Of a stretch of 64,000 bases of DNA, positions 375 to 43,080 are shown piece after piece; positions within the stretch are counted from its first letter, which is position 1; every line of letters starts with the position of its first letter. The notes under the pieces are model-generated. The model saw only the letters and a list, made by a program, of their open reading frames with translations, had not been told where the DNA came from and searched no databases. The position numbers were made by a program, and so were the translations under genes. The stretch spans positions 18,233 to 82,232 of the forward strand of contig JBFMCO010000022.1 of assembly GCA_040754495.1 (NCBI GenBank). Reading direction: 5' to 3'. The stretch is from Candidatus Micrarchaeota archaeon. GTDB taxonomy: Archaea; Micrarchaeota; Micrarchaeia; Anstonellales; Bilamarchaeaceae.

Positions 375-540
375 GGGCCCATAGCTCAGCTTGGTAGGGG
401 GGCCGCTCTTATTATAAGAGAGGCCTCGCCGTAAGCGACGGACTCTTATCTTTTGGAAAGGCACTTACAGCCCGTTTTGGGCCGCCTTTTCCCAAAAGGC
501 GGAAATCCGTGTGTCGAGGGTTCAAATCCCTCTGGGCCCG
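375..540 (+). tRNA. tRNA-Lys(CUU) with two introns (about 398-433 in the D-arm, 449-504 at canonical 37/38)
   Basis: Acceptor GGGCCCA/TGGGCCC. D-arm GCTC-AGCTTGGTA-G[intron]AGC. Anticodon stem ACGGA/TCCGT with loop CUCUUA[intron]A. T-arm GAGGG-TTCAAAT-CCCTC, discriminator G, no encoded CCA. Splice boundaries are ambiguous by 1-2 nt. Confidence 0.75.
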
Positions 541-541
541 T

Positions 542-564
542 CCCCTTTTTTAGTAAAAAAGGGG
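542..564. terminator. perfect 10-bp inverted repeat with T/A runs directly after tRNA-Lys
   Basis: CCCCTTTTTT-AGT-AAAAAAGGGG. T-run on + strand, A-run mirrored. Plausible transcription stop for the tRNA. Confidence 0.45.
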
Positions 565-654
565 CCAAAAAACTAATTGTTTGTCAACCCCCCGTGGTTA
601 CCATTTATCCAAAAAATCCAGCGGATTAAAAACGCGATTAGCGATAAAATATTC

Positions 655-1545
655 ATGTCACAGCCCCTGCAGAAGCCCGCGCAAGAGCACCAGCGCCTCC
701 AGACCACTCCCCGCATCCGCAGGCCTCCTTTCGTGATGTGCAGGGACATCGAGCAGGTGAGGGAGGTGCTGAGGATTTACGGCGCGATGGAGATGCACCT
801 GATGATGTCCGGAATCCTGGAGAACAGGAAGGAGATCGGGAGCCTCATGTATGCTTATGACGAGACTTCGAGGCAGGCGCTCGCGCGCGCCCCGCCGATG
901 GTGGTGAGGGTCCCGCAGGGCCTTCTGGACCAGCTTGCGATAGCCGGGGGCGCGAGCGGTGCCTACGTCCCGGGGACCAATATCGTCCTCGTGTCATCGT
1001 CGCCGGCCCGTTTCCCGGACGGGACGCCGCAGAGGGTGGAGGACATAATAACCCACGAGACTCTCCACTATCTCGACTATCTCCTTCATGCCAATCGCAT
1101 GGCCTTCAGGAGCCGGGGGCGGCTTGTGAATCCGGAGCCGCCGAGATTCTTCGACGAGGGAGCGACCAACTATGCTGCCCTCCAGGTCGTCAGCGGGATG
1201 CATCTGCCCGGAAACCGGGAAGCACCTGCCAACTACGCATATCCGACGGCAGTGATGGTGGCAATCGAGATGCTCGCAGGCATCGAAAGGCTGGCTCCGG
1301 CCATGCAGAGCGGCAACTGGGAGCATGTGCAGCAGGCAATCGACCAGAAGCTCGGCCAGGGCAGCTTCGAGCGGATACTGGATTGCGGCAACGGCGCGGA
1401 AGCCATCGGGCTCATACTGGAACTGGATAACGGCCAGCCCCCCTTTATAGACAGGCAGCTTCTCGAGCGGCATCCGGTCATGAGGAGGGCGAGGCGCGGA
1501 ATCGAGGCCATGAGGCCGCCGTCCATGGCGGGCCAGGAGATATGA
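655..1545 (+). CDS. hypothetical HExxH (zincin-like) protein, first gene of the giant-gene operon
   Basis: ORF 577..1545; the first ATG is at 655 (TTG at 577 is an alternative start). Motif IITHETLHYLDYLLH contains HETLH. Same strand as the two following genes and 71 nt upstream of the next. Confidence 0.6.
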   Translation: MSQPLQKPAQEHQRLQTTPRIRRPPFVMCRDIEQVREVLRIYGAMEMHLMMSGILENRKEIGSLMYAYDETSRQALARAPPMVVRVPQGLLDQLAIAGGASGAYVPGTNIVLVSSSPARFPDGTPQRVEDIITHETLHYLDYLLHANRMAFRSRGRLVNPEPPRFFDEGATNYAALQVVSGMHLPGNREAPANYAYPTAVMVAIEMLAGIERLAPAMQSGNWEHVQQAIDQKLGQGSFERILDCGNGAEAIGLILELDNGQPPFIDRQLLERHPVMRRARRGIEAMRPPSMAGQEI

Positions 1546-1616
1546 ATCGACCGGCGGTTCGCTAGCCATAAAAAGCGTCTCCTGCATATCCATTCGCCGC
1601 TCCGGGTGCGAACTAC

Positions 1617-1946
1617 ATGGCGAAGGAAAAAATCGACTGGTCACAGCCCCCCAACCCGTCACTGCCGTTTATCAGCCCGGAGAACATAGGCGAGGTCGAG
1701 AAGGAGGCGCTGGCGATGGCCAACAAGGCTATTTCTCTCCTTGAGCAGGCGATAGCAGCCTGGGACAACGCTAAGGACAAGCCGCCTGAGCTGAAAGGGA
1801 CGATTCAGAGGTACAGGCGGTTCCACGAGGCGCTGAGCGACTGGGAGAAAAGGATGCTGCAGTCCCTGGGGAAGGCGGATTTCAATGCCCGGGTGAGGAT
1901 GCTCGAGGAGTTCGTGAGGATAAGCAGGGCATACGAGGGTAACTGA
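1617..1946 (+). CDS. small helical hypothetical protein (109 aa), translationally coupled to the giant ORF
   Basis: ORF track. Its TGA stop (1944-1946) shares one base with the ATG (1946-1948) of the giant ORF (TGATG). Confidence 0.55.
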   Translation: MAKEKIDWSQPPNPSLPFISPENIGEVEKEALAMANKAISLLEQAIAAWDNAKDKPPELKGTIQRYRRFHEALSDWEKRMLQSLGKADFNARVRMLEEFVRISRAYEGN

Positions 1947-4900
1947 TGGGCCAGAAACCTGCGGAGAGGCAGCCCGAGGTGCGGGACGAAGGAGTCAGGG
2001 TCGCCCAGCCGCAGGTCCCGATGGTTCCGAGGGAACAGCCGCGCGGCGGCGCGAATGAAGCAGCCGCAAATGCCGCGACCGGCCTCGGCGTTATGGGCAA
2101 GTTCGCCGCGGTTCTCGATTTCATAATAGCAGACCCCAGCAGGGCCGAGGGGAGGCTCGCTGAATTCAGCCGGCGCCTGGAGCCGTACCGGGCGGATTAT
2201 CCCGAGGAGACGCGCATCGCCCTCGGCCTTTTCGGCGCCGCGTCACGAATGTACAGGGAAGCGCAGGACGCGCGGGCCCATGGAGACACGCAGCGCGCGC
2301 AGGAGCTGGAGGATTCCGCGAGGGCCCATTTCAGGGAGGGCATGGCGAAGGCCGGCTCCGTTCCCGGCATGGCGCAGGACATACACAGCCTGGCGGGTGC
2401 GGGAGCGTCGCCGGAATGGATTGAATCGCGCAAGGCGGCTTTCAACGACGTGGGGCTCGGGACGTGGAACAGGGCTATCGCCATCGACCAGGCGGTGGAG
2501 TGGCGGGTGAAGAACGACGCGATAATAGATGCCGGAGGCCCGGCTGCGCGGGAAGCAGAGGCCAGGATGCGCGATGAGGCAGTGAGGCTGGCCGAGGGCT
2601 CGAGGCAGGGCCAGGCCTTCAGCGAGCAGGATTATCAGGACACGATGAGGCGCTTTTCGGAGGCTTCCGCGCCTGTCACCGCCCTCGCAGCGCACATCCA
2701 CGGGGCGGCCGCGCTGTTCCACCAGGCCGCGATGAGGCAGGGCGTAAGCGAGCAGTACACGAAGGCGATGGAGGACCTGAAGAAGGAATTCGACAAGCTG
2801 CTCAAGAAGCTCGAGGAAGGGACCGCGACGAAGGAGGACGTGGAGAAGGCGAAGGAGCTGGCCGATGCAGTGAAGGCCGCTGAAACCGACCTAGAAGGGC
2901 TCTCGGGCGATGATGCAGTTACAGTCAGCGGAATCCATGCCCGCGGGCTCAGCGCCCTCAGGCAGGGGAAGGGAGAGATGGCGAGGGTGCAGCGCCAGCT
3001 CGCAAGGGAATACGCTAAAACGAAGGACCCCGGGATGAGGAAGAAGCTCGAGAGATGGAGCGCTGACCTCGCCAAGGGAAAGGCGCCGGAGGCCGAGTTG
3101 GAGAGGTGGCTGGAAGCGCAGAGGCCGGCGGAGTTCCGTGCGCTGACGACCGAAAACATAAAACGCGAAACCGCAGAAAGGGCGGGCCTGCTGCGGGAGA
3201 AGGGGTACGAGCGCAGCCATCCGCGCGAAACGAAAAGGATAGCTGAGCTGGACCGGGAAGCGGCCAAGGCGCTCGAAGAAGCGAAGGCATTGAGAAAAAG
3301 AGGCGACCTGGACGGCGCGGGGAAGCTCGAGGCGAAAGCGTTCAGGCTGCTTCGGGAGGCGAGGGCGAAAGTCCTCTGGCTCGAGCGGCTCGACAGGTTC
3401 CAGGCAAGGCTGGCCGGCATTAAGGAGCCTCCGGAAATGAAGAAGGCCGCGGAGGAGGTTTCGAAAGCGCTGGGCGGTGCATTCAATTTCATAGGGACGC
3501 AGGACGGGTGGCGGGCGAGGCTGGCATTCATCGCAGCGGACGTGTTCATCCGCTATGGCAAGGTTCTCCAGAGCAAGCCCGCGGCGCCGCTCCTCAAGGG
3601 CATCCTCAGCATCGTGGGCATCCTCTCGGACCCGAGGAAGAAGGTGGACGAGAAGAGGGCGCAGGAGGAGGTCGGAAGGCTGGAGCCGAAGGCGCTCTCT
3701 GCAGAGCTTGGCGGCCTCAAGGGCAAGGTCGATGACAAGGCGCATTCCAAGCTGACGGACGCGGTGAAGGCGGCATCAGGCTTCATAGGCACGAACCAGC
3801 AGTGGAGGGCAGCGTATCTCCTCAGGGGCGTGAAATTCTTCCTTGACAACCGGGAGAAGATTGGCACGCGGGGGAAGCTCTTCGAGGGCATCATGGGATT
3901 CCTCGGCAGGCTCGCCGACCCGAAGGGGGAGATAGGGGAAGAGGAGGCGAAGAGGGAGTTCGCGCGCATCACCGGGATACCTGCGGAAGCGCCGGCGCAG
4001 GCAGGCGGAAGACGGGAGGCGGCACTTACGGTAGCCGGCCTCAAGCAGGCCGGGGAAGGGTTCGAGAAGCGCCTCCGCGCCATACCAGGCCACGAGGAGC
4101 AGGTGCGCTCCATAACCGAAACAGTGAAGCTCGCCGGGGAGGAGTTCAGGGCTGGCAATGTGAAGAAGGCGCAGGAGCTCCTCGCGCTCGCGGAGAAGAA
4201 GGCCGCCGCCCTGGAAGGCGTAGTGGAGAGGGAAAAGAGGATAGACGCCTCAGGCGCGCCCGAGGAGGCGAGGGAGAAGCTGAAGAAGGCCGGCCTCGCG
4301 GCATTCAACGACTTGGGAAAGCAGAGCGGGGGAAGATTCGACACGGTAGTGAAGGCCACGGACCTGTTCCTGGGGGGGATGGAGCGGAAACTCTGGCTCC
4401 AGCCCGGCGGGGAGACGGCGGCCCTGAAGCTGCTCGATTTCATCGGCAGGCTGGGCGAAGGCGCGCTGCAGGGGCTGGAATTCGACTCCCAGGCCGCCGA
4501 ATCCGAGCTGTCTGATATATCGGCGCAGGCCGGGGAACTGTGGAAGGCGATGCTCGGCGCGTCCATCACCGAATGGCTCAGGCTGATAGAGGGATGGCGC
4601 ACGATGGGCGGGCTCGGCACGGCGAACGCGAAATTCCTGGACGACCTGGCAGAAAGCTACAGGGCGCTGCAGAAGCGGCTCGAGGAGGGCGCGAAGGCTG
4701 AGGACATCGAGCAGGAGGCATCGGCCCTCGAGGCGAGGGCGGAGCACGCGAAAAAAATCGGGGAGGAGCTCGAGGAAAGGGAGCGGGCGGTTGCGGTCTT
4801 CAGGGGGGACGTCGAGGACTTCAAGGCTGATACCGCTGCGTTCCGGGCATCCGAGCGGTTCAAAAAATACGCGGCCGATGCCGAGCCGTACGTGAAAAAG

Positions 4901-26207: not shown

Positions 26208-26222
26208 CGGTTTCCTGCCTTA

Positions 26223-27175: not shown

Positions 27176-27208
27176 GCCTTGCCCTTTGCGCAAGCCGCGT
27201 GGCCAGGC

Positions 27209-31134: not shown

Positions 31135-31235
31135 GTTTTTTTCATTTTTCTTTCTTATTTTCCCTCTTTATCCGGGAATTCGGACACCAATAGCGGATTT
31201 TTAAAACTTATCCCCGATTTATCCGCGGTGATAAT

Positions 31236-31685: not shown

Positions 31686-31777
31686 GTTTCTTTTTCCCTT
31701 ATTTTTCCCTTTTCTCTATTCTTCAAGACCCTAGACCGGAAACTGGAAACCGCAAGTCATACCTGAGGCCCGGGAGT

Positions 31778-34700
31778 TCACAGGAAATCGGACAGCCCCA
31801 TCTGCTTGACCTTGTCGTCCTCGAATATGCTCTTTATCTCCCGCTCGACAAGCACCAGCCTCTGCTTCAGGTAGGAGGGAAGGTCGTAGCGGTCGCATAT
31901 GTCGCGGGATATCTCCAGGTATTTCTCGATTCCGCCCTTGTTGATTGTGAGGAGGAGGTTGCCCCCGCAGCGCGCGCACTTGCCCGCCAAGGGCACCCTG
32001 CGGAAGATGGTGTTGCACGAGACGCAGCGGAAGGTCTGCCTTGAGAAGGAGCGCAGGTTGCCGTAGAGGTCCGGGATGAAATGGCTCAGTATCAGGCGCT
32101 CGGCTGCATCGCGCCTATCAACCGGGCGGAGGCGGCCCTGGAGCCTGAACTGTATGTCTATCTTGTCCGGTATGGACTGCAGCTCCACGTAAGCCGTCCG
32201 TATGTTCCCGACATCAAGCGTGCCGCCCGGATGCGTGATGGGAAGCTCGTACTGCTCGTCGGTCCCCAGGACGTCCTTCACGGTCTTGAGCTTCACCTCG
32301 CCCGGCGGCGCGAAGCGCTCCGCGGCCTCGTAGAACTCGAGGGGGTAGCGCGAGACGATTTCGATGCAGTGCGCCTCGTCGTCCACCTCCTTGGGGTTTA
32401 TCTCTATGGAGAGCACGAGGGGCGCGTCCATGGTGCCCCCGCGCTTCTCGTCGAGGAACCTGCGGGAGAAGTTGATGAGGGCGTCCATCAGGAGCATCAC
32501 GCAGTCCTCGTCGCCGTCGCACCGAATCGTAAAGACCTGGTTGTTCAGAAGAACATTCTTTTCTTCCAGGGATTGGCCTTCCACATCGAGGCAGTATGCC
32601 GGAACTCCGTCTGTGAATTTCTCAATCGACCTGACCTTATCGAAAATATAGTCGCTTTGAGGCACGACCGTGAACAGCTTATTCTGGTATTTGATAAATC
32701 GCGCATCGCTCGACAGACCGTTTCTTCTCAGTTCGGACATTCGTTCTGCCTTATGCTTCACAGAGGGCGCGCAGATATTTGCAAAGGCATATAGGTCGGT
32801 GCCATAAAGACTAATGAATCTCTGCGAAAGCAAACGCGGGGTTTTTCCGAGCTCTTTATACCTTTCAAGGACCTTTTTGCCAGGCAAACGCGGTTTGGTT
32901 TTGCCATACCTGCAGAAGATTCCAAATCGCAAAAGCAGCGTGCCGAAATCCTCCAAAAGATTTTGTGAAACGGAGTAGAAGTGCATTCTCGGGGGGGTGG
33001 CGATTACACTTCCATCTCCGTCAAAATAAGCAGAAATAAAGGATTTGACAAGACGGTCAGGCAGTGAAAAGACGAGATTTGGAACCCGTTTCGTGTAGGC
33101 ATTTGAGCCGGTCTTCAAGACTTTATCAAACAGAAGGTGGATTATCCGGCTGCACATTGTTATCTGAGTGCCGTTCTCGCCAAGATAAGGGTTCGTCATA
33201 AAAACGCTTTTGATGGCGGCAATAAGCCGGTTCTGCATTATTTTATTGCAAACCCTGAAGCTGACCTGATAACACGAAGGGCTTCTCCGTGCATACCCCT
33301 CTGAGACGAAGTAGCCGAGAATGAGCATCAGGTCCTCATCTATTGGAATTCTTACCGGCAGCCCCAGGTTATCTCTCTTCATGGCAATTTTTGCATCCAT
33401 GGGCAAATCCTCAAAATTGCACACCCCCTCTTCCACAAGGATTTCGAAATGGGAGAGTGGAACGCGTCCATACCACCTGCTCGGAGTCCGTCTCTCGATT
33501 TTGTTGAGCGGCAGGATTCTGAGCAGCAAATCGCGATGATTATAGAATATTTTCTTGAAAAAATCCTTCGAGCGAAGTATTATCGCTTCTTTTTCTTCCT
33601 TTTTTAGTGGAGATAGGGCCTTTGCAAGATTGAGCACGCGGGAGTCGTCTATCGTGTGCGGATTGAATTTTATGCAAACTGGCAGATCGGAGCCTTCAGT
33701 CATATCTTTTGCCTGAACTGCGCTAAGCGCCCCTTTGTTGAGGCAAAGAATATTATGGTCGGGAGTCACGGTAATCTCCCGGTGGGTGGTTGTCGTAAGC
33801 TTAATCCATTTATCGGGAGCCTTTGCTCTGATGAAGCATTTGATTTTTTTACGGATTGTTTTGTGGGATTGGAGGTCTATTCCGAATGAGTAAAGAGTTC
33901 CGGGAACTTCCACTTTTTCTGTATAAGCATCAAGCCGCTTGACCCTGTCGGGGTATTTGGCAAACATTTCTTCGGTAACATCGCCCAGTGCCCTTTTGAT
34001 ATATTTTTTCTCGTGCTCATCAAATATGATAATCTCGGTTGCCGGATGGAAGCAGTTCCTTCTCTTCGCCGTGTGGAAATACGGGTGGCCGTAGCCGACG
34101 TTGGCCTTGTTGAAGCCCACGATGCGGCACAGGACGCCGGCGCTCGTGTGCGGCGAGAGCCCGACTGCCAGGTGGCCTATCAGGTCGTCCTTCGACTTCA
34201 CGTTGTAGAAGGGCTTCATGCCGTAGAGGTTGATTAGCATGTCGTCGATGAAATCCGCCACACGCATGAAGTACGCGGCGCCGTTCTCGGAGAGGACGAT
34301 GTCCTGGTGCCGCAGCGCCAGCGTCTGGGAGCCGCTCTCGAGGGGCTTGCCAAGATAATCCACGGCATAACCGAGCGCCCTGGCCCTATCGAGGCTTATG
34401 CCCACCTCGTCCGGCGTGAAATGCGTGAGCGGGATGTCTGTCGCGTCGAAGCGGGAGGTGCCGTCCCTGAAAACGTAGACGTCGTGCTTTGCGCGGAGGA
34501 AGCCCTTCTCCAGCCGCTCCGGGATGCGGATGGTGTTCGAGAGGCCCTTCACCCCCTTCACGTCTTCCGGGGAGCTCCCCACCCGGTCCTTCACGCGCTC
34601 GAAGAGCTCCATTATGTCTACGGGCCTGCGGTCGTAGGAGAGCGTCTTCATCTCGCAGTGGATTTCGTACTCGCAGATGCGGCCGCACTTCTGGCATATC

Positions 34701-36658
34701 CGCTCCTCGGCGGCCCTGCCGCCGCAGACGTCGCAGCGCCGGTAATAGCCGAGGCGGCGGCATTTTTCGCATCGCAGCCTGGCGAGCTCCAGGTTGATCG
34801 TCTTCTCGCCCTCGGCACCCCTGAGGGCACGGTGGACCTTGCTCAGGCTCCGGTTCTTGAACGAGCCGGTCGGGAAGAGGACGTGCGGCGAGCCGTCCAT
34901 CTTCCTTTCCTTTGCCTTCTCCGGCCTGCCCATGCGCGCTCCTATATAAGTAGGAGCCTTGGCCTTGATGCGTATCTGGGAGGCCGCGTTCACGATTTCG
35001 AGCGCGCCCTTTGCGGCATCGTATGCCGCTTCGAAGCGGGAGAGGTCTATGCGGCCATCCGAAAGCGCCCCCAGCGAAGAGAGGAGCGCGTACGCGTCGT
35101 CGCCGTCAAGGATGACATTCCCGTCGTGCACCCTGTGCTCCGCGAGGAGCTCCTCCAGGGCCCTTTTCGCAGGCGATGGCGGAAGGACGAGCGAGCGGAG
35201 CCTGCCATCGTGCATCTCCAGCTTCCCGCCCTTGAGCCAGTCCGCCAGGGATTTGAGCTGGTCCGGCGACAGGTCGTGCCAGTGGAATGTGTAGCGCGGA
35301 TGTAGAGGCACGCCATGCGTCCGCGAGAATGCAAAAAGCCCCGGCGCGTCCATGGCGGCAGGAGGCTGGACTCCCTTGGATTCGAGCTCGCGCTCCCACC
35401 ACTCTTCGCAGTAGCCGGATGGCATGAGGGGGTGGTTGGACTTGTGGAAATCGCCGTACGTGCAGAGCAGGTCGCCCAGGAAAAGGATTTCTTCCACCTC
35501 GTCCTTGATGCCGTACGACTCCTCCAGCGTCCGCACCTTCATCACGCGCCCGCTTTTGAGCTTCACGACCGGCGGCTCGAGCCCCTCGTGCGCCGCGACC
35601 ACGCAGCCCTTCCCGGGGCGCTCTATCTTCATGTGAGTCCCGTAGGCCAGGAAGTTGTCGAGCAGTATCATCGTGGCAGGATGGACGTCCTTGCCCATGA
35701 GGCAGGTGGTCTTGCTCCTGCCGTAGCGCAACCGGAACCCGCCCTTGGCCGAAGGGTGGCTGAAGACCGGCCTCCCCGCTACAAGCCCTTCCATGTAGGT
35801 CCAGTCCGGCTTCACCTCGACCTTGTCCGCCTTTTTCTTTATCTTGATGATTTTCTCGAGCCAGTCCCAGCCCAGCTTGAGCTTCTTGGCGTATTTGAGG
35901 AGCTTGGCGGCCTTCGCTGCCACGCCCTCGCACATGACGAGGGGCACGCCGCCGCGCACGCGGTCCGTCTCCACTCCCGGCACCCCGCGGTAGGTCGAGA
36001 CCTCGATTTCCTCGGTCGGGTCGCCGTCTATGCAGACCGGGCAGTTGGATGCTATCACGCGCACGTCGTCCTCCGGCGGCATGTACTGGAGGTGGGTTAC
36101 GCGCGTCTCGTATGTCGTTACCTCCTCGTAGTATCTTGCAATCTGGGAGTCCGTGGCGCGGTAGTCCCCCACGCTGCATACGCGGCGCGCGATGTCGGCA
36201 AGCACCAGGCTGAGGGCGGCCGCAGTGCCTCCTGCGCTCCGGATGGGGCCCGCATAATAGACCGCCACGTAGTCGCTCCCGTCCGGGTTGCGCTTTATCC
36301 TCACTTTCGCTATGCCCTCGGTCGGGGCGACCAGGACGCCCTCGGTGAGTATGCCGAGGCCCGTCCTCACCGCCTGTTCGATGAGAAGCTCCTTGGACGC
36401 CTTCATCAGCTCGCCGCCGGCGATTTTGCGTGCGATTTCGAACGCGATGTCCTCGCGGCCCATGCCACCTTTTTCCATGTCCCGGATGAGATCTGCCACT
36501 CCGGGGGGGCCGACGATACCCTCCACGCGGGCGGCGATGTCCTTGGCTATCTTGACTTCTATGTCGTCGCTCGGGTCATAGCCGAGCCTCCTTGCCTCTG
36601 AGGCGACGGCGTATGCCTTCTGCAGCCCCTCGCGGAGCGTCTCCACATACTCTCCCAT
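31778..36658 (-). CDS. polC: DNA polymerase II (PolD) large subunit DP2, interrupted by one intein
   Basis: 1,626 aa. Zn-finger run CEKCRRLGYYRRCDVCGG...CQKCG. Catalytic region GHPYFHTAKRRN|C...|CDGDEDCVMLLMDALINFSRRFLDEKRGGTMDAPLVL, which is contiguous in intein-free DP2. Confidence 0.9.
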   Translation of the reverse strand: MGEYVETLREGLQKAYAVASEARRLGYDPSDDIEVKIAKDIAARVEGIVGPPGVADLIRDMEKGGMGREDIAFEIARKIAGGELMKASKELLIEQAVRTGLGILTEGVLVAPTEGIAKVRIKRNPDGSDYVAVYYAGPIRSAGGTAAALSLVLADIARRVCSVGDYRATDSQIARYYEEVTTYETRVTHLQYMPPEDDVRVIASNCPVCIDGDPTEEIEVSTYRGVPGVETDRVRGGVPLVMCEGVAAKAAKLLKYAKKLKLGWDWLEKIIKIKKKADKVEVKPDWTYMEGLVAGRPVFSHPSAKGGFRLRYGRSKTTCLMGKDVHPATMILLDNFLAYGTHMKIERPGKGCVVAAHEGLEPPVVKLKSGRVMKVRTLEESYGIKDEVEEILFLGDLLCTYGDFHKSNHPLMPSGYCEEWWERELESKGVQPPAAMDAPGLFAFSRTHGVPLHPRYTFHWHDLSPDQLKSLADWLKGGKLEMHDGRLRSLVLPPSPAKRALEELLAEHRVHDGNVILDGDDAYALLSSLGALSDGRIDLSRFEAAYDAAKGALEIVNAASQIRIKAKAPTYIGARMGRPEKAKERKMDGSPHVLFPTGSFKNRSLSKVHRALRGAEGEKTINLELARLRCEKCRRLGYYRRCDVCGGRAAEERICQKCGRICEYEIHCEMKTLSYDRRPVDIMELFERVKDRVGSSPEDVKGVKGLSNTIRIPERLEKGFLRAKHDVYVFRDGTSRFDATDIPLTHFTPDEVGISLDRARALGYAVDYLGKPLESGSQTLALRHQDIVLSENGAAYFMRVADFIDDMLINLYGMKPFYNVKSKDDLIGHLAVGLSPHTSAGVLCRIVGFNKANVGYGHPYFHTAKRRNCFHPATEIIIFDEHEKKYIKRALGDVTEEMFAKYPDRVKRLDAYTEKVEVPGTLYSFGIDLQSHKTIRKKIKCFIRAKAPDKWIKLTTTTHREITVTPDHNILCLNKGALSAVQAKDMTEGSDLPVCIKFNPHTIDDSRVLNLAKALSPLKKEEKEAIILRSKDFFKKIFYNHRDLLLRILPLNKIERRTPSRWYGRVPLSHFEILVEEGVCNFEDLPMDAKIAMKRDNLGLPVRIPIDEDLMLILGYFVSEGYARRSPSCYQVSFRVCNKIMQNRLIAAIKSVFMTNPYLGENGTQITMCSRIIHLLFDKVLKTGSNAYTKRVPNLVFSLPDRLVKSFISAYFDGDGSVIATPPRMHFYSVSQNLLEDFGTLLLRFGIFCRYGKTKPRLPGKKVLERYKELGKTPRLLSQRFISLYGTDLYAFANICAPSVKHKAERMSELRRNGLSSDARFIKYQNKLFTVVPQSDYIFDKVRSIEKFTDGVPAYCLDVEGQSLEEKNVLLNNQVFTIRCDGDEDCVMLLMDALINFSRRFLDEKRGGTMDAPLVLSIEINPKEVDDEAHCIEIVSRYPLEFYEAAERFAPPGEVKLKTVKDVLGTDEQYELPITHPGGTLDVGNIRTAYVELQSIPDKIDIQFRLQGRLRPVDRRDAAERLILSHFIPDLYGNLRSFSRQTFRCVSCNTIFRRVPLAGKCARCGGNLLLTINKGGIEKYLEISRDICDRYDLPSYLKQRLVLVEREIKSIFEDDKVKQMGLSDFL
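32522..34054 (-). mobile_element. intein (511 aa) with LAGLIDADG homing-endonuclease domain in PolD DP2
   Basis: Starts CFHPATEIIIFD after KRRN. Block B ITVTPDHNIL. LAGLIDADG motifs LILGYFVSEGYA and FISAYFDGDGSV. Block F-like AYCLDVEG. Ends ...NVLLNNQVFTIR directly before CDGDED. Confidence 0.8.
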
Positions 36659-36745
36659 CAGTCCGCCCTGGAAAATTCGAATACCAATTTAAACATGAGC
36701 AAATTAAATAACTCTGCTCTTCCGGCAGAGGCCGGAGGCTCTTTC

Positions 36746-36960
36746 GCCGAGGTAGCTCAGTCGGCTAGAGTGCTCGACTCATAGGTAAAGTCCGATGAGT
36801 GATGAGGTCTGAGACCGATGATATTAGCGCACTCAACTGAGACATCGAGAGGTCGGGGATTCGAAACGGTCTCCTGCAGCCCGCATCCGGCATCCAGAAC
36901 CCGAAACGGCTGGTTGCTGGCGACTGGTTGCTGGAAACCGCGAACCTTCCCCCCTCGGCA
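36746..36960 (+). tRNA. tRNA(CAU), elongator Met or Ile2 type, with two introns (36784-36843 at 37/38; about 36867-36947 in the T-loop)
   Basis: Acceptor GCCGAGG/CCTCGGC + A. D-arm GCTC-AGTCGGCTA-GAGT. Anticodon stem CTCGA/TCGAG, loop CUCAUA[intron]A. T-arm GGGGA-TTCGAAA[intron]TCCCC. Followed by a T-run. Confidence 0.7.
36793..36840 (+). ncRNA. candidate box C/D guide RNA embedded in tRNA(CAU) intron 1
   Basis: GTGATGA (36799-36805, box C consensus), CTGA (36809-36812), CGATGAT (36816-36822), CTGA (36837-36840) in C-D'-C'-D order. A 12-14 nt spacer lies before box D. Confidence 0.45.
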
Positions 36961-37105
36961 TTTTTCCACTGGTTTACAGTTTCCGGTCCCGGGTTTTCAC
37001 TTGGGAAAAATGCCGGCCCTTGGAGCCGCAGCTCCAAGCGGACGGCAAGCAAAACATATATACGCTTTTTCTCCGATTGACATCCCGCGACCAAAAGGTG
37101 AGACT

Positions 37106-37345
37106 ATGGAACTTCGGAAATGCGAAAGCTGCGGCATGGCTATGGTAAGGCTCTCTGACTTCGGCGGCATGAAGAACGACAACAGGTACTGCAAGCACTG
37201 CGCTTACGACAACGGCGACCTGCGCCCCAGGCACGAGGTGCGCGAGGGGATGATACTCTACTACATGAAGACCAAGGGGAAGGACCGCAGGAGCGCGGAG
37301 GAGTACGTTGACGAAGTGATGGCCGGCCAGCCCGCCTGGCAGTAG
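37106..37345 (+). CDS. small zinc-ribbon protein (79 aa)
   Basis: ATG at 37106 after AAAGGTGAG. MELRKCESCGMAM...RYCKHCAY has two CxxC pairs. The upstream part of ORF 36818..37345 overlaps the tRNA and is rejected. Confidence 0.55.
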   Translation: MELRKCESCGMAMVRLSDFGGMKNDNRYCKHCAYDNGDLRPRHEVREGMILYYMKTKGKDRRSAEEYVDEVMAGQPAWQ

Positions 37346-37434
37346 TGGCAGAGAGAAAAGTTTTCTGTCGCAAGGATTCCGGCGTGAAAACAACCATTTA
37401 TAATTTGTTGATGCGTTTAGCGTAAGGGATTCCC

Positions 37435-37608
37435 ATGACAGACGAAATCAAATTCCCGGCTCCTGAGGGCGGATTGGCCGTGCCGGCCGAGGTGCTTTCG
37501 GAAGCCCAGAAAATAAAGAAAGGCATCTGCCCTTCGTGCGACGGCAGCCTCGTCTTCCAGGAAGGCTGCAAGGTCTGCTATTCCTGCGGCTGGGGCGGCT
37601 GCGAGTAA
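37435..37608 (+). CDS. 57-aa Cys-rich zinc-ribbon protein (not in ORF track, below its size cutoff)
   Basis: Read directly: MTDEIKFPAPEGGLAVPAEVLSEAQKIKKGICPSCDGSLVFQEGCKVCYSCGWGGCE*. The pattern CPxC...EGCxxCxxCGWxxC resembles the C-terminal Zn finger of some ribonucleotide reductases. Confidence 0.5.
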   Translation: MTDEIKFPAPEGGLAVPAEVLSEAQKIKKGICPSCDGSLVFQEGCKVCYSCGWGGCE

Positions 37609-37672
37609 TTCTTGAAAAATCCCTTCGGGATTTTTATTGTTTTCCCTGCTATCCAGTTCCGATGGTGATTGC

Positions 37673-37966
37673 ATGGGGCTCAAGGAACTGAAGCCGGACA
37701 TAGTGAAGGCGTATTTCGATTTCAGCAAGCTCGTCGACAAGACTGACAAGCTCAGCCAGAAGGAGAAGGAGCTGATAGCGGTCGGCGTCTCGCATGCACT
37801 GCTTTGCAGCTTCTGCATAGAGGACCATGTGCAGAAGGCCAGGGTAGCTGGCGCGACTGAAGAGGAGATTGCCGAGGCGATACTGGTAGCCGCGAAGGTA
37901 AGGGCAGGCTCCGCGCTTACATACGCCCAGAAATATGCCTTCAGGAACGAGCCGCCCAAAGGCTAA
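37673..37966 (+). CDS. carboxymuconolactone decarboxylase/AhpD-like family protein
   Basis: From MGLKELKPDI... LSQKEKELIAVGVSHALLCSFCIEDHV has the CxxC..H pattern typical of the CMD/AhpD family. Confidence 0.6.
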   Translation: MGLKELKPDIVKAYFDFSKLVDKTDKLSQKEKELIAVGVSHALLCSFCIEDHVQKARVAGATEEEIAEAILVAAKVRAGSALTYAQKYAFRNEPPKG

Positions 37967-37971
37967 TTAAT
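37964..37971 (+). promoter_or_regulatory. candidate TATA box upstream of tRNA-Ala
   Basis: TAATTAAT ends 26 nt before tRNA position 1 (37997). Confidence 0.35.
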
Positions 37972-37996
37972 CCCTTTTACCAAGTATTTTTTCATT

Positions 37997-38165
37997 GGGC
38001 TCGTAGCTCAGCATCTTGAGGGAAAAGCGCCTAACAATGGGTTTTGGCCCAGCTTTTCCCAAAAGCTGGAAGCAGAGCACTCGCCTTGCAGTTTCCTCGA
38101 AACCGGAAACGGGAAACAGGAGACCGGAACGCGAGGGGCCGGGGGTGCGAGTCCCCCCGAGTCCA
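37997..38165 (+). tRNA. tRNA-Ala(UGC) with two introns (about 38012-38065 in the D-loop; 38091-38129 at 37/38)
   Basis: Acceptor GGGCTCG/CGAGTCC with G3:U70. D-arm GCTC-AG[intron]CTGGAAGCA-GAGC. Anticodon stem CTCGC/GCGAG, loop CUUGCA[intron]C. T-arm GGGGG-TGCGAGT-CCCCC. Discriminator A, then a T-run. Confidence 0.7.
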
Positions 38166-38235
38166 TTTTCTCATTTTGAACCATATGGAAACACTTAAAA
38201 AGCGTAATATACACAATACCCCTAGAGTGGTACTT

Positions 38236-38937
38236 ATGAAGCTTGTTCACGAGCAGGACCGCAAGAAGGACGAGGACAAGGGCATCCCGAAGGGGAAGGC
38301 GCCGCTTCTCGAGGAGATAGGCGGCACCGGGGGATTTTCCAGGAAGGGCTTTGTTCTGGCGGCAGCCGCTGCAGCCATTATCGCGGGCAAGTCCGGCTGC
38401 ACTTACGAAATCGGCGGCGTGCCCGTCCCTGAAGAGGAGGACGGGGGCAACGATGCCGGAGGGGCGGATGCCGATGTAGACGGAGGCGAGGTCACCGACG
38501 GCGGGCATGACGAGGACGCGGGCATGGACGGCGGTCCGGACGCGGATGTCGACGGCGGAGAGACGGATGGCGGCGTCACGGACGGCGGAGAGACCGACGG
38601 TGGCGTAGAAGACGGCGGGACCGATGGCGGCGCTGATGCCGGCGGCCCGCTCTGCGCGGGAGTATACAACGAAGTTGTCGTCAACGGACCTTTCGACAGG
38701 AACGTTGATACGGAAGTCGGCGGGTACTACTTCAGATACCTGTCCTACACGACGACCACGGTCACGATGGACATCCGCTGCGGCTCGGACAGCTCGTTGG
38801 TCGAGGCCGCCCATGTGTTCACTGTCGGCGTGGAGGGCACGATAAACGTCCCTGCCGACAGCAAGAGGATACGCGTCACCGTGAACAGCAAGAACACGTT
38901 CACCGCGAACTGCGATGTAACGGTGGAGAACCTGTAG
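38236..38937 (+). CDS. secreted/Cys-anchored protein, family member 1 (D/G/T-rich linker + conserved C-terminal domain)
   Basis: ATG at 38236. FVLAAAAAAIIAGKSGC, then an acidic DGG-rich linker. C-terminal GPLCAGVYNEVVVNGPFDRNVDTEVGGYYFRYLSYTTTTVTMDIRCG...VPADSKRIRVTVNSKNTFTANCDVTVENL. Confidence 0.7.
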   Translation: MKLVHEQDRKKDEDKGIPKGKAPLLEEIGGTGGFSRKGFVLAAAAAAIIAGKSGCTYEIGGVPVPEEEDGGNDAGGADADVDGGEVTDGGHDEDAGMDGGPDADVDGGETDGGVTDGGETDGGVEDGGTDGGADAGGPLCAGVYNEVVVNGPFDRNVDTEVGGYYFRYLSYTTTTVTMDIRCGSDSSLVEAAHVFTVGVEGTINVPADSKRIRVTVNSKNTFTANCDVTVENL

Positions 38938-38946
38938 GGTGATTTA

Positions 38947-39540
38947 TTGAGATTGCAGCCCCGGAATGAGGAACACAAGGAAGAAAAGAAGGAAGGATTC
39001 GCGAGAGAGCCCCTTCTCGAGAGGGCAGGGAAGAAGGCGGGAATAGCCCTCCTCGCAGCCGGACTTGCCGCAGGCTGCACGTATCAGAGCAGCAGCCTCC
39101 CCAGTGGTGATGGCGGAACTGACGCCCACCAGGATGCCGGCATGGACGGCGGCGCCGATGCAGGACCGGACCTCGATGCGGGACCGGATTCCGGTCTTCC
39201 GGATGCGGGAACGGATGCAGGTTTCGATGCCGGCACGGACGGCGGAGGGCCGCTGTGCGTAGGCGTCTTCAACGAGGCAGTGGTCAATGGGGCCTTCGAC
39301 AAGAACGTGCCGAGGGCCGTGGGCGGATACAGCTTCAATTACACGGCTTACACCACGAGCACAATCACCATGGACATCCGCTGCGGCTCGGACAGCTCGG
39401 GCGTAGCGCTCGGCCAGGTCTTCACTGTCGGAGTCGAGGCCGTAATAGACGTCCCTGCCGACAGCAAGAGGATACGCGTCACCGTGAACAGCAAGAACAC
39501 GTTCACCGCGAACTGCGATGTGACCGTGGAAAACCTCTAG
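38947..39540 (+). CDS. secreted/Cys-anchored protein, family member 2
   Basis: TTG start (uncertain). IALLAAGLAAGC, acidic linker. The same C-terminal domain ends in the identical VPADSKRIRVTVNSKNTFTANCDVTVENL. Confidence 0.65.
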   Translation: MRLQPRNEEHKEEKKEGFAREPLLERAGKKAGIALLAAGLAAGCTYQSSSLPSGDGGTDAHQDAGMDGGADAGPDLDAGPDSGLPDAGTDAGFDAGTDGGGPLCVGVFNEAVVNGAFDKNVPRAVGGYSFNYTAYTTSTITMDIRCGSDSSGVALGQVFTVGVEAVIDVPADSKRIRVTVNSKNTFTANCDVTVENL

Positions 39541-39650
39541 CCTACCCTTATCCCTTTATTCTTATCGCTCCATGCTTCTTATGCGGTCATGATGAGAAGA
39601 GGTATTCCTGAATGATGATGGGACGTCAGAGCTGAACCGCACAGATTTCC

Positions 39651-40175
39651 ATGGAGAAGAAGGCAGAGGGGATTGTAGAGATCGTTTCGGCAGCAGCCAT
39701 CGCCGGAGCTGTCCTTTATTTCTCGAGCGACATATCGGCCCTCGGCTCCTATGGGTATGCCGGGGCATTCCTCATAGCGATGCTCAGTTCGGCCACGATA
39801 ATATTCCCTGCGCCAGGCTGGGCTGCGGTGGTGGCCCTCAGCGGCACCCTGGACCCCCTTCTTCTTGGCATAGTGGTGGGGGCGGGCTCCGCCATCGGCG
39901 AGATTACGGGCTACCTTGCCGGCGACGGCGTGCGGGACATCATGAACAGCCGGCTGAAGGAGGCCAGGAAGTTCGAGGATTTCGTGAAAAAATACGGAAT
40001 CATGGCGATAGCCGTGCTAGCGTTCATACCCAACCCCCTATTCGACATAGCCGGGATTATAGCAGGCGGGCTGAGGATACCGTGGTGGAAGTACCTACTC
40101 TCATGCGCTGCAGGCCGGATAATCAGGTATGTGCTCCTTGCTTACATCGGGGCGTTCACGATAGGCCTGCTCTAG
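39651..40175 (+). CDS. DedA/YqaA-type (VTT domain) membrane protein
   Basis: YAGAFLIAMLSSATIIFPAPGWAAVV...GAGSAIGEITGYLAG...FIPNPLFDIAGIIAG matches the VTT/YqaA pattern. Confidence 0.6.
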   Translation: MEKKAEGIVEIVSAAAIAGAVLYFSSDISALGSYGYAGAFLIAMLSSATIIFPAPGWAAVVALSGTLDPLLLGIVVGAGSAIGEITGYLAGDGVRDIMNSRLKEARKFEDFVKKYGIMAIAVLAFIPNPLFDIAGIIAGGLRIPWWKYLLSCAAGRIIRYVLLAYIGAFTIGLL

Positions 40176-40295
40176 CCTGATGGGAACGTATATAAAGAGG
40201 GAAAAACATAATTATCTGCTTAAAAAAGGGACAAAGTTCGCAAGAAATCTGTTTCTGCGGCCCTTTTTGATACAAAATTACAGGGAGGTGGGGAG

Positions 40296-40751
40296 ATGAA
40301 GATGGGGGCAATAGACCTGGATATCCTGCGGGAGCTGCGCGAGAACTCAGACAGGCCGGTGCGGGAGCTTGCCAAGAAGATGGGATTGCACCCGAACACC
40401 CTGCTGCAGCACATAAGGAAGATGGAGAGCAGCGGCATCATCGTGAAGTATACGGCAGAGATAGACTACACCAAGCTCGGCTACGACCTGCAGGCTCTTG
40501 TGATGATAAAGGTCGGCAAGGAGGTCCGGAGCGACTGGAAGGTTCTCGATGAGCTGCGCGCGTTCAAGGACGTCTCGGCGCTCTATGCGATAACCGGGGG
40601 CTACGACCTTTGCGCCATCGTGAAGACGAAGAACAGGGAAACGCTCGCAAACCTGCTCTCCGAGATAAACAAGAGGCCGTACGTGGTCGAGACGAACACG
40701 ACGCTCATGCTCCACGCTTTCAAGCACGCGTACGAGTTCAACCCGCTCTGA
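40296..40751 (+). CDS. Lrp/AsnC family transcriptional regulator
   Basis: DLDILRELRENSDRPVRELAKKMGLHPNTLLQHIRKMESSGIIVKYTAEIDYTKLGY: HTH plus RAM-domain pattern. 151 aa. Confidence 0.8.
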   Translation: MKMGAIDLDILRELRENSDRPVRELAKKMGLHPNTLLQHIRKMESSGIIVKYTAEIDYTKLGYDLQALVMIKVGKEVRSDWKVLDELRAFKDVSALYAITGGYDLCAIVKTKNRETLANLLSEINKRPYVVETNTTLMLHAFKHAYEFNPL

Positions 40752-40754
40752 GGC

Positions 40755-41690
40755 TCAGTCCTTGTGGAATACCATGCCATACATGTCATGGTATTCGTCT
40801 ATCCTCTTCCGCATCAGCGTGGCAGGCACATAGTGGAATCCGGTGAGCTGGAAGATGGAGCTGATTTCAGGAATCTGGAGGACGGTGACGGCGATGCGTA
40901 TAAGCCTGGCCAGCTTCTGGACTTCATTGTCATCCGGATGGAGGTCCGTCCTGACGACAAGGGGCGACTCCTCGATGGAAATGAGCCTGCCTCCAGGGGG
41001 GAGCGTGTTGAAAAGCATGCTGGCGACGTTGCATTTCTCATCCGAGCCCCTGATCCAGTGCATGACGTAAGACAGGATGGCGGTCCTTACTTCCCCGCCG
41101 TCCTCCACCTCGCGGAGGTCCTTTGCGTCCCTGCACTCGAAGCGGACACGCAAGAGCTCCAGCTCCCGCACCATCAGCTGCATTTTCCGCCCGTCGTCGG
41201 AGTCAACGATGTGGAGCGATGCGGGGTGGATGCCCGGGGATACGAAAGGCATGGACTCGATGAGCCTCTGCATCGCATTCCTCACGTTGGCCCGTGCCAG
41301 GCCGAGCATCACTTCCGACATGTCCAGCAGTATGAACTTGAGGGGGAGCTTCGGCACCTGGAGCAGGCTGTCCTGTGTGGAGAGGACTTCTGCGGACATG
41401 CTCACCATGAGGTTAGCGGAAAGGACGCCGGTGCCGCATCCCAGTTCCGCAATCGGGCCGGCCGAATGCCCTTCGGCGACATAGTTCCTGAGAATCTCGA
41501 GCGCAATCGGGTGGTGGCTTTCGCGCATCCATTCATCGTAGCGCGGCGCGAACCTTTCCGTAGCCCGGAGCACGGTTGCCAGGGTCGGCGGTTTCATGAG
41601 ACGGGCGTCCGGCGAGCGGCTTATGATAAGCGGCATCGGCCTTCCTGAAGCCATAGAATTGCCGCCTGCGTCCCCTCCCATTATACCCAC
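40755..41690 (-). CDS. class I SAM-dependent methyltransferase (start uncertain)
   Basis: Motif I IAELGCGTGVLSANL. The later LPPGGRLISIE is typical of post-II/III motifs. Several in-frame Met codons near the N-terminus. Confidence 0.6.
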   Translation of the reverse strand: MGIMGGDAGGNSMASGRPMPLIISRSPDARLMKPPTLATVLRATERFAPRYDEWMRESHHPIALEILRNYVAEGHSAGPIAELGCGTGVLSANLMVSMSAEVLSTQDSLLQVPKLPLKFILLDMSEVMLGLARANVRNAMQRLIESMPFVSPGIHPASLHIVDSDDGRKMQLMVRELELLRVRFECRDAKDLREVEDGGEVRTAILSYVMHWIRGSDEKCNVASMLFNTLPPGGRLISIEESPLVVRTDLHPDDNEVQKLARLIRIAVTVLQIPEISSIFQLTGFHYVPATLMRKRIDEYHDMYGMVFHKD

Positions 41691-41730
41691 AGGGATATAT
41701 GTTCTACCATTTATTTAAAAAGGCTTCCGC

Positions 41731-42678
41731 TCAGGAGGGTTTCTTGAAGCAGAGGCAGCGCATCTCGCCCCAGTAATCCGGAGGCAGGCCCGGGCCGCGG
41801 AGCACCTCGGCCAGGCGGACCACTTCCACCCGCGTCTCGGCCGCGGCCTGCATGTCGGTCTCGGCCACCCGGGCTATCCACTTGTCCCTCACCCAGCCGG
41901 AAACATCCTCGCTCATGTCGAGCGGGCGGCTTATGAATGCCAGGAGCTTGGCGCCTTCGGAGCCGACGACGCCGTAGGGAAGGGGCAGCCATGGGTAGAC
42001 GTCCATAATTATGAACCGCCCGCCGTCCCTCAGGAGGTCGAACGCATTCGTCATCACGGCCCCCCTGCTCGCCAGCGTCTGGAAAGAGCCCCACCAGAGG
42101 ACTATGTCGAACATGGCCGGCTTCACCACCGGGCTTTCCCGGACGAGGCCCTCCATGGAGAGGTCGATTGACGCCATCGTGACGGCCTTCCCGTCCGGCC
42201 TGATGAACTCCGCCAGGTTCGACCTCGCTATTAGGTTCAGCTCGGGCGACACCTCGTTGGCGAATACGCGCAGGCCCGAGTTAGCGGTGTGGAGGAGATA
42301 GCGCGACACCATCCCGGTGCCGCAGGTGGCATCAAGGATGAGTTTCGCGTGGTTGATGTCAGGCACGAGGGACCGGAGCTTCATCCAGTTGACCGCGATA
42401 GCGGTATACTGGCCCGTCAAATCCATGAAGACGTCGAGGGAGCTCCCGCCGCCCTCGTGCGGGCGGGCCAGATACCCGCCCGTGGTAACCCGGACGGCCC
42501 CGAAGCCTCTTTCGCGCAGGACTTCATCTTCGTGCTGGCTTCCGTTTCCGAAAAGCGCGGGTGATTCTTCCACAAGCGGGGCAGCGCCGCCGCCTGCGCG
42601 GCGCAGGCCGGAGATGGGGACGCTCCGCTCGCCCTGGACTACGAACACGCGCTGGGGCTTCCTGAAACGTTCCGGCAT
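41731..42678 (-). CDS. class I SAM-dependent methyltransferase
   Basis: ATG at 42678 (ORF track GTG at 42687). Motif I ILDATCGTGMVSRYL, then LRDGGRFIIMDV. Confidence 0.6.
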   Translation of the reverse strand: MPERFRKPQRVFVVQGERSVPISGLRRAGGGAAPLVEESPALFGNGSQHEDEVLRERGFGAVRVTTGGYLARPHEGGGSSLDVFMDLTGQYTAIAVNWMKLRSLVPDINHAKLILDATCGTGMVSRYLLHTANSGLRVFANEVSPELNLIARSNLAEFIRPDGKAVTMASIDLSMEGLVRESPVVKPAMFDIVLWWGSFQTLASRGAVMTNAFDLLRDGGRFIIMDVYPWLPLPYGVVGSEGAKLLAFISRPLDMSEDVSGWVRDKWIARVAETDMQAAAETRVEVVRLAEVLRGPGLPPDYWGEMRCLCFKKPS

Positions 42679-42816
42679 ATCACCCACTCGGGACTTTATT
42701 AGACTGGAAAGGTATTTAAGTTATTATATATGTCGCGTCTTGGATAATAACGCGTTGCACCCGGAAAACAGAACTCGGGCCCGGGGCACTGAACCGGAAA
42801 CCGGCTGCCGGGGGCT

Positions 42817-42853
42817 GGATGCAGGAAAAAAATAGCGGGGGGTAGATTTGAAC
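42817..42853. repeat. 37-bp direct repeat, copy A (partial copy of initiator-tRNA 3' end plus its downstream flank)
   Basis: GGATGCAGGAAAAAAATAGCGGGGGGTAGATTTGAAC is identical to 42960-42996. No complete tRNA can be folded around copy A. Confidence 0.8.
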
Positions 42854-42959
42854 CCCCAGCCTTTTTATAATCGGAATCCTGGCCCCGGAGAAAAAGGCTA
42901 GGGTTAACCCAAAAACCAGTTTCTCGGAACCCTGAACCCGAAACGGGAAACCGGAAACA

Positions 42960-42996
42960 GGATGCAGGAAAAAAATAGCGGGGGGTAGATTTGAAC
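42960..42996. repeat. 37-bp direct repeat, copy B (overlaps the intact initiator tRNA 3' end)
   Basis: Identical to 42817-42853. Covers tRNA positions from the T-loop to the discriminator (42976-42996) plus 16 nt downstream of the tRNA. Confidence 0.8.
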
Positions 42997-43080
42997 TACC
43001 GGTCCCTGGGTTATGAGCCCAGTGGGAACTCCAAGCTTCCCATAGGGCAAATTCTAGATGTTAGAATTTGTTACCCCGCT
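42976..43080 (-). tRNA. initiator-type tRNA-Met(CAU) with one intron (about 43042-43071) between position 9 and the D-stem
   Basis: Minus strand: AGCGGGG-TA-[ACAAATTCTAACATCTAGAATTTGCCCTAT]-GGGA-AGCTTGGAGT-TCCC-A-CTGGG-CTCATAA-CCCAG-GGACC-GGTAG-TTCAAAT-CTACC-CCCCGCT-A. A1:U72 and three G:C pairs next to the anticodon loop are archaeal initiator hallmarks. Confidence 0.75.

Follow-up and report, generated by a model that had tools for sequence, protein, structure and literature searches.

Disrupted tRNA genes with predicted bulge-helix-bulge introns, and a conserved guide-like intron in tRNA-Met, in a high-GC Micrarchaeota lineage

Four tRNA genes in the window carry seven introns

A stretch of 64,000 nucleotides from the archaeal contig JBFMCO010000022.1 (positions 18,233 to 82,232 of the forward strand; this whole 64-kb stretch is called the window below, and coordinates are window positions) contains four transfer RNA (tRNA) genes that are together interrupted by seven introns. 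The genes were located by reading the sequence and by simple intron-tolerant scans, and their coordinates were checked base by base. They are organized as follows.

375-540, + strand: tRNA-Lys(CUU), exons 375-397, 434-448 and 505-540
398-433: tRNA-Lys intron 1, 36 nt, position 22/23 (G22/A23)
449-504: tRNA-Lys intron 2, 56 nt, position 37/38
36746-36960, + strand: tRNA-Met(CAU), elongator type (predicted), exons 36746-36783, 36844-36865 and 36947-36960
36784-36843: tRNA-Met intron 1, 60 nt, position 37/38
36866-36946: tRNA-Met intron 2, 81 nt, position 59/60 in the T-loop
37997-38165, + strand: tRNA-Ala(UGC) with G3:U70, exons 37997-38013, 38072-38090 and 38130-38165
38014-38071: tRNA-Ala intron 1, 58 nt, D-loop
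38091-38129: tRNA-Ala intron 2, 39 nt, position 37/38
43080-42976, - strand: initiator tRNA-Met, exons 43080-43072 and 43041-42976
43071-43042: initiator intron, 30 nt, position 9/10

An initial annotation of this DNA had proposed that all four genes bear introns and that three of them bear two, which the verified coordinates bear out. The D-arm and 37/38 introns that it gave for tRNA-Lys (about 36 and 56 nt), the 37/38 and T-loop introns for the CAU gene (60 and about 81 nt) and the intron of about 30 nt after position 9 of the initiator all coincide with the segments listed here. For tRNA-Ala, the D-loop location and the 39-nt intron at 37/38 stood, and the length of the D-loop intron was corrected from about 54 to 58 nt on the evidence of intron-less orthologues. 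The intron positions had also been called mostly non-canonical, a statement that amounts to four of the seven introns (22/23, D-loop, 59/60 and 9/10), with the remaining three at 37/38.

Once the introns were removed in silico, ARAGORN called the genes Lys(ctt), Met(cat), Ala(tgc, with G3:U70) and Met(cat), in agreement with the standard cloverleaves claimed earlier. The spliced initiator has the expected A1:U72 pair, and three G-C pairs close its anticodon stem. Judged by ARAGORN and by its acceptor and anticodon stems, the other CAU tRNA is probably elongator tRNA-Met rather than tRNA-Ile2. Each gene has an A/T-rich box upstream and an oligo-T run after it, as read from the sequence.

The use of tRNA predictors had been proposed as a check, and its outcome depended on the input: all four spliced sequences were called correctly, whereas the calls on unspliced DNA were wrong. 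With default settings, ARAGORN reported a single false tRNA-Gly(ccc) at 461-540, and with the option -i it reported a false Leu and a false Val. Rfam, used with gathering cut-offs and with E up to 10, likewise called no unspliced gene correctly; its threshold was passed only at 42984-43041, the part of the initiator (its 3' two-thirds) that has no intron. Default tools therefore got none of the four genes right, which explains how routine annotation comes to under-count tRNAs in DPANN archaea. In about 0.6 Mb of sequence from Micrarchaeota and other DPANN (related loci L001-L039; loci used for comparison are numbered with the prefix L), ARAGORN found only nine intron-less tRNA genes. Since exon searches found dozens of interrupted genes, routine annotation under-counts tRNAs badly in Micrarchaeota. 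Three custom intron-tolerant scans of the window, together with BLAST searches with the tRNAs of relatives, yielded no fifth tRNA gene, although a gene that is split or interrupted in the acceptor stem could escape them.

The mature tRNA-Ala(UGC) has an unusual elbow region. From the intron-less orthologues it follows that its D-loop is the 7-nt AGCAGCA, which lacks G18-G19, and its T-loop reads UGCGAGU (G at 55) in place of UUCRAAU. Both oddities are kept across relatives (for example L012, 8580-8509), and this suggests that the contact between D-loop and T-loop may have been rewired in this tRNA.

All seven junctions lie in a bulge-helix-bulge motif

Six of the seven junctions were fixed to the nucleotide by intron-less orthologues, and the 37/38 junction of tRNA-Lys rests on the cloverleaf and the motif. 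The exon-intron junctions, which the initial annotation had proposed to check by folding, were examined for the splicing motif, and a 3-4-3 bulge-helix-bulge falls in register at all seven. The central helix has four of four base pairs in five introns and three of four in the 37/38 introns of tRNA-Lys and tRNA-Ala, and the inner helix has at least two contiguous base pairs in every intron (range 2-9 bp). At the three 37/38 introns and at the 59/60 intron, an outer helix of 5 bp, formed by the anticodon or the T stem, completes the full hBHBh' geometry (a bulge-helix-bulge with a helix on either side).

We scored each junction by a combined measure of its central and inner helices. The seven junctions had scores of 6-10, and random pairs of sites in the window reached 6 or more in 2% of trials. 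In addition, no shift among the 49 compared for each junction scored higher than the true site, though some tied with it. The minimum-free-energy fold of the tRNA-Met precursor also reproduced the canonical motif at 59/60 (z = -3.7).

The host is a high-GC member of the Micrarchaeota

Among the proteins encoded in the window is the DNA polymerase D large subunit (PolD DP2; 31778-36658, - strand), which is interrupted at residues ~925-1362 by an intein with a LAGLIDADG domain. The N-terminal 900 amino acids of this protein are 71-83% identical to their counterparts on at least 15 contigs of Candidatus Micrarchaeota/Micrarchaeia metagenome-assembled genomes (MAGs), and the same segment is 36-46% identical to those of other DPANN and Altiarchaeia. 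The presence of PolD excludes Thermoproteales as the host, and identity of up to 83% to Micrarchaeota MAGs makes the host a Candidatus Micrarchaeota (DPANN) archaeon. With a GC content of the window of ~60%, the host is, by these sequence criteria, a high-GC member of the phylum. The nearest MAGs come from groundwater and sediment, and the lineage is non-acidophilic.

Introns come and go among close relatives

Orthologues adjoining PolD in relatives were compared, with the initiator and one tRNA-Lys within reach, in ~0.75 Mb of related sequence. Exons were identical or near-identical among relatives and introns differed. The 59/60 intron of tRNA-Met is absent from ten orthologues (L001-L006, L009, L010, L014 and L016) and present, with other sequences, in L007, L008, L011 and L012. 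Orthologues of tRNA-Ala have no intron at all in L012 and L016, the D-loop intron alone in L004, the 37/38 intron alone in L005, and a 37/38 plus a T-loop intron in L001-L003 and L017. The 22/23 intron of tRNA-Lys is missing from L008 and L011, where the orthologues read GCTCAGCTTGGTAGAGCG. Six initiator genes are without an intron (L005, L008, L012, L045, L051 and L061); the initiator of L006 has a homologous one, in which the hairpin is kept by compensatory changes and GCCCTAT is kept at the 3' junction.

The closest relative found was L017, whose tRNA-Met intron is identical in the metagenome locus L051. Even so close a relative differs from the window in the occupancy of at least four of the compared intron sites, and the turnover of introns must thus be fast. 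Gain and loss of introns are accordingly ongoing even between the closest relatives.

In L010 (~1701-1900, - strand), L044 and L053, the tRNA-Met genes contain two to three tandem units, each made of the start of exon 2 (ATCGAGAGGT) and an intron-like segment ending in CGGAA. Intron gain through local duplication may have been caught in progress here.

A recurrent module is found in introns of different tRNAs

The 37/38 intron of tRNA-Lys and the D-loop intron of tRNA-Ala are paralogues: their 5' ends have TCTT..GG in common and their 3' ends GTTTTGGnCCnnCTTTTCCCAAAAGnnGGAA, and compared with each other they score 37, where shuffled sequences average 11.4. They differ in the four bases that precede the terminal AA, in a way that allows pairing with the local exon (GCGG in tRNA-Lys, CUGG in tRNA-Ala). 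Within the two introns lies a 29-nt module, which reads GTTTTGGGCCGCCTTTTCCCAAAAGGCGG in tRNA-Lys.

474-502, + strand: 29-nt module in the 37/38 intron of tRNA-Lys
38041-38069, + strand: paralogous copy in the D-loop intron of tRNA-Ala

The module also occurs in inverted form. When the tRNA-Lys module was compared with the T-loop intron of tRNA-Met in L011, 28 of 29 positions were identical in inverted orientation, with a score of 53 against 27 for the forward match and a shuffle maximum of 21. An inverted copy forms a hairpin directly 3' of the tRNA-Lys gene, at 541-575. Of the 29 copies detected across the window and related loci, every one is located in a tRNA intron or a tRNA-Lys trailer; searches of the window and of 62 related loci gave none elsewhere. 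Of note, the module has a palindromic hairpin at its core, and inverted similarity is therefore partly automatic.

In general form the module reads GTTTTGGGCC-GCCTTTTCCCAAAAGGC-GG, and it is seen in introns at 37/38, in the D-loop and in the T-loop of different tRNAs, in both orientations. Sites in relatives include L011 6705, L008 6978 and 8137, L012 9735 and L045, among others.

A second kind of repeat consists of runs of the heptad SGGAAAC/GTTTCCS:

38098-38117: 37/38 intron of tRNA-Ala
36900-36945: T-loop intron of tRNA-Met
42925-42960, - strand: trailer of the initiator
36975-36990, - strand: trailer of tRNA-Met
31733-31752: downstream of PolD

The sequence CCGGAAAC has 13 occurrences against 2.7 expected. 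Copies in both orientations, common to introns and trailers, point to an exchange or spread of tRNA introns that would have taken place at the DNA level.

Probable splicing of the four precursors and alternative explanations

With a probability that we rate as high, the window holds four functional Micrarchaeota tRNA genes interrupted by seven archaeal bulge-helix-bulge introns. Each gene would be transcribed as a single precursor, in which every exon-intron pair would, upon folding, offer two 3-nt bulges flanking a 4-bp helix; a tRNA splicing endonuclease would cleave within both bulges, and the exons would be joined by an RtcB-type ligase. That these precursors are spliced and ligated in this way, and by which type of enzyme, is what we infer from the gene structures and, for the enzyme, from the phylum. 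A three-unit epsilon-2 EndA, as described for Micrarchaeum, would account for the tolerance of relaxed motifs. The introns themselves are evolutionarily fluid, coming and going among close relatives, and some are copies of one another at different tRNA positions.

Several observations weigh against this interpretation. The tRNA-Lys 22/23, tRNA-Ala D-loop and initiator 9/10 introns have only 0-1 contiguous base pairs in the outer helix and are of the relaxed type; the endonuclease must accordingly tolerate relaxed motifs. This is the part of the initial annotation's claim of relaxed motif requirements that stood; the three 37/38 introns and the 59/60 intron have the full geometry. In two of the 37/38 introns, however, a C·C or U·C mismatch interrupts the central helix, and the motif of the initiator can form only if positions 4-7 of the acceptor stem are unpaired. 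In the lowest-energy fold of the tRNA-Met precursor the anticodon loop pairs with the intron, and the motif at 37/38 is not formed. Finally, Pfam scans of about 50 open reading frames (ORFs) in the window detected no EndA, RtcB or other splicing genes and none for methylation proteins, L7Ae, Nop5 and fibrillarin included.

We considered whether the loci could instead be tRNA pseudogenes, relics of genes that insertions have disrupted and that are now neither expressed nor spliced. Standard predictors do miss all four genes, and the 3' end of the initiator has a partial duplicate of 72 nt just downstream of that gene, which indicates some local decay and duplication. Yet exons stay near-identical even in relatives with PolD identities of only 71-83%, while the introns between them diverge or vanish; all insertions sit within a correctly phased bulge-helix-bulge; the upstream A/T boxes and oligo-T terminators are retained; and the loci hold the syntenic place of the only Met and Ala genes seen beside PolD in relatives. 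Loss of function is on these grounds very improbable. An even smaller probability attaches to the idea that the inserts are self-splicing group I or group II introns, or unrelated insertions, and not endonuclease substrates. Group I introns have been reported in rRNA genes of Micrarchaeota (PMC6125680), and a LAGLIDADG ORF fragment lies at 1-315, but inserts of 30-81 nt cannot accommodate a ribozyme core, Rfam searches with E up to 10 returned no intron family in the window, and bulge-helix-bulge geometry is present in seven of seven cases.

A different kind of alternative concerns the origin of the introns and leaves their splicing untouched. The non-canonical introns could be copies of a small DNA mobile element, akin to a miniature inverted-repeat transposable element or derived from a tRNA 3' trailer, that are tolerated since the endonuclease can cut at their ends; this would be an alternative to the transposition of introns at the RNA level that has been proposed for Thermoproteales. 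The near-perfect match of the tRNA-Lys module to the reverse complement of the L011 intron, the inverted hairpin behind the tRNA-Lys gene, the confinement of all 29 copies to introns and tRNA-Lys trailers, and the SGGAAAC repeats shared by introns and trailers in both orientations are what such an element might produce. Part of the inverted similarity, however, comes with the palindromic core, and neither target-site duplications nor terminal inverted repeats nor a transposase were seen. A free DNA element would also be expected to leave some copies outside tRNA genes, and none was found in the related sequence examined, which amounts to only ~0.75 Mb. We regard an origin from a mobile element as unlikely on balance, though far less so than the two preceding alternatives.

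The 37/38 intron of tRNA-Met contains a conserved K-turn and antisense module

Unlike the other introns, the 37/38 intron of tRNA-Met is present in all 16 syntenic tRNA-Met genes, the window included. It was also found in 20 further distinct metagenome variants, which were retrieved by a pattern requiring ATGAGG and CCGATGA, so that both motifs are conserved by construction in that group. In the window, the conserved module (36795-36823, + strand) has the following parts.

36795-36800, + strand: AUGAGU
36802-36805, + strand: D'-like AUGA
36806-36816, + strand: hairpin
36817-36823, + strand: GAUGAUA

The core of the intron can be written as [A/G]UGAGU-N-AUGA-GG[hairpin]CC-(G/A)AU-GA. Its kink-turn (K-turn) motif, ..AUGA-GG[hairpin]CC-(G/A)AU-GA.., is seen in 36 of 36 distinct introns, a count that is unbiased only for the 16 syntenic genes. 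The hairpin covaries, and its third pair is CG in 22, GC in 5, UA in 4, AU in 2 and UG in 2 introns, with zero mismatches. L001 has lost the first GA and kept the second, and the second GA is thereby marked as the sheared one in a K-turn whose bulge is 3 nt long.

The AUGAGU segment is antisense to A31-U36 of the tRNA, and the duplex runs past A37 into the intron. Intron base 1 faces guide position 9 (N+9) as GC in 26, UG in 3, AU in 2, UA in 2 and CG in 1 intron, with two non-pairs, and intron base 2 faces guide position 10 (N+10) as GC in 31, GU in 3 and GG in 2. This pairing was found both in the lowest-energy fold and in the consensus fold. With AUGA taken as a D' box, the partner of C34 is the fifth nucleotide upstream of that box (N+5), which is the rule position for box C/D-guided 2'-O-methylation.

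The intron does not have the layout of a full box C/D RNA, with terminal C (RUGAUGA) and D (CUGA) boxes and two spacers of ~12 nt. Some relatives have GGAAUGA, GUCAUGA, CCUGUGA or UGUAUGA in place of its upstream GAUGA; its 3' CUGA is absent from many of them and overlaps the splicing helix; and its 3' segment varies from 7 to 22 nt, which leaves no fixed second spacer. A single K-turn is evident, and no Rfam C/D family matched the intron at E up to 10.

An interpretation of the intron as a complete box C/D RNA, with CCGAUGA as both C and C' and with CUGA as D' (at 36808) and as D, was abandoned once relatives had been compared. The CUGA at 36808 sits in the variable hairpin loop, the upstream GAUGA is unconserved, and the 3' CUGA has the weaknesses just given. 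GCACUC was likewise rejected as a D guide, since it would target G24 or G26 inconsistently; its pairing with exon G22-C27 was seen in the lowest-energy fold, and the exon being invariant, this pairing gives no covariation readout.

In archaea, a box C/D particle installs Cm34 in elongator tRNA-Met by pairing with exon and intron (PMC2584109; PMC7994747). The guide has been reported as "always exonic", that is, as a separate small RNA (sRNA), and an intron-borne guide is described only in tRNA-Trp (PMC2584109; PMC7994747). We compared the tRNA-Met intron with the known guides, namely the euryarchaeal pre-tRNA-Trp intron (Cm34 and Um39) and the stand-alone sR-tMet/sR49 for Cm34 of elongator pre-tRNA-Met (PMC2584109; PMC7994747). 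It resembles them in being a conserved 37/38 intron with GA motifs that is antisense to its own anticodon loop, with C34 five nucleotides from the D'-like box and a guide conformation that excludes the splicing motif. Because the pairing includes intron nucleotides, such a guide would have to act before splicing. It differs in being located in tRNA-Met, in having one K-turn, and in lacking conserved box C/D elements and a fixed second spacer of 12 nt.

The existence of a selected K-turn-plus-antisense module in this intron is very likely. More tentatively, the module could make the intron a minimal Cm34 guide for tRNA-Met, intron-borne and acting in cis or in trans. The broader notion that the tRNA-Met 37/38 intron of Micrarchaeota is a conserved functional RNA and not a passive spacer is likewise a possibility that we would put short of even. 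If the guide function is real, the intron would add a second, independent example of retention for a function among tRNA introns, and it would represent a minimal guide architecture with one K-turn.

Relation to known disrupted tRNA genes

The initial annotation had placed these genes beside the multi-intron tRNA genes of Thermoproteales and of some DPANN archaea, a kinship supported by the PolD-based assignment of the host to DPANN and by ARMAN-2 (Candidatus Micrarchaeum acidiphilum), which belongs to the same phylum (PMC3239211). In ARMAN-2, disruption affects 56% of the tRNA genes (Fujishima et al. 2011, PMC3239211), with introns at 59/60 and other sites and some genes having two (PMC3239211; PMC4033280). 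Its three-unit epsilon-2 EndA cuts strict and relaxed motifs in vitro (PMC3239211; PMC4033280; see also Hirata et al. 2012, PMC3488258). Like the window, ARMAN-2 has introns at canonical and non-canonical sites (59/60 among them), genes with two or more introns, and a mixture of strict hBHBh' and relaxed motifs; a non-standard D-arm was also noted in ARMAN-2, in tRNA-Pro. The present lineage differs in being high in GC (~60%) and non-acidophilic, in the disruption of all four genes within 64 kb, in sites that include 9/10, 22/23 and the D-loop, and in its documented polymorphism and intron paralogy; here, the enzyme type is presumed from the phylum.

For Thermoproteales, multiple-intron tRNAs and large-scale intron transposition have been described (Sugahara 2008; Fujishima 2010; summarised in PMC4033280). 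The likeness lies in up to several introns per tRNA, many of them non-canonical, in similar introns across tRNAs and positions, and in rapid change of intron number. The lineage of the window differs in belonging to another part of the archaea, with PolD present, for which a different endonuclease family is expected. Its module also occurs in both orientations and in tRNA 3' trailers, a feature that the sources consulted do not describe for Thermoproteales.

Disrupted tRNA genes together with a broad-specificity three-unit endonuclease have been on record for Micrarchaeota since 2011, and the novelty of the disrupted genes as such is modest, given that the phenomenon is documented for the phylum. 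The present data extend this known oddity of heavily disrupted tRNA genes to a different, high-GC lineage. Beyond this, the comparison with relatives brought out the rapid turnover of introns, the module in both orientations and the conserved guide-like intron of tRNA-Met. The lineage could provide snapshots of the origin of archaeal tRNA introns, for which the two-orientation module argues for a route at the DNA level.

Other features of the window

An AT-rich ORF fragment (1-315, + strand), truncated at the edge of the window and located directly 5' of tRNA-Lys, contains a LAGLIDADG-like domain (E = 1e-5). It may represent a free-standing or intron-derived homing endonuclease.

A single ORF of 6841 amino acids with coding-like codon composition extends over 1946-22471 (+ strand), and it is responsible for the strong GC and AT skew across the first 20 kb. 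Its product has zero cysteines and no hydrophobic runs of 16 or more residues, and Pfam matched neither half.

The partial duplicate of the initiator mentioned above (42782-42853 versus 42925-42996, - strand) spans 72 nt with 83% identity, its first 37 nt being identical. It comprises the last 22 nt of the tRNA and ~50 nt of trailer, and the copy lies 143 nt downstream. As the similarity runs on into the downstream flank, the repeat is best read as a tandem duplication. An integration site was rejected because no integrase is nearby, and a nascent T-loop intron because no bulge-helix-bulge was apparent by eye.

A box C/D sRNA of textbook type lies at 39581-39643 (+ strand). Its terminal stem GCGGU/ACCGC encloses, in order, AUGAUGA, a 12-nt spacer, CUGA, AUGAUGA, a 13-nt spacer and CUGA. 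The sRNA scored 28.8 bits against snoPyro_CD, which is under Rfam thresholds, and it is kept in L017 and L051.

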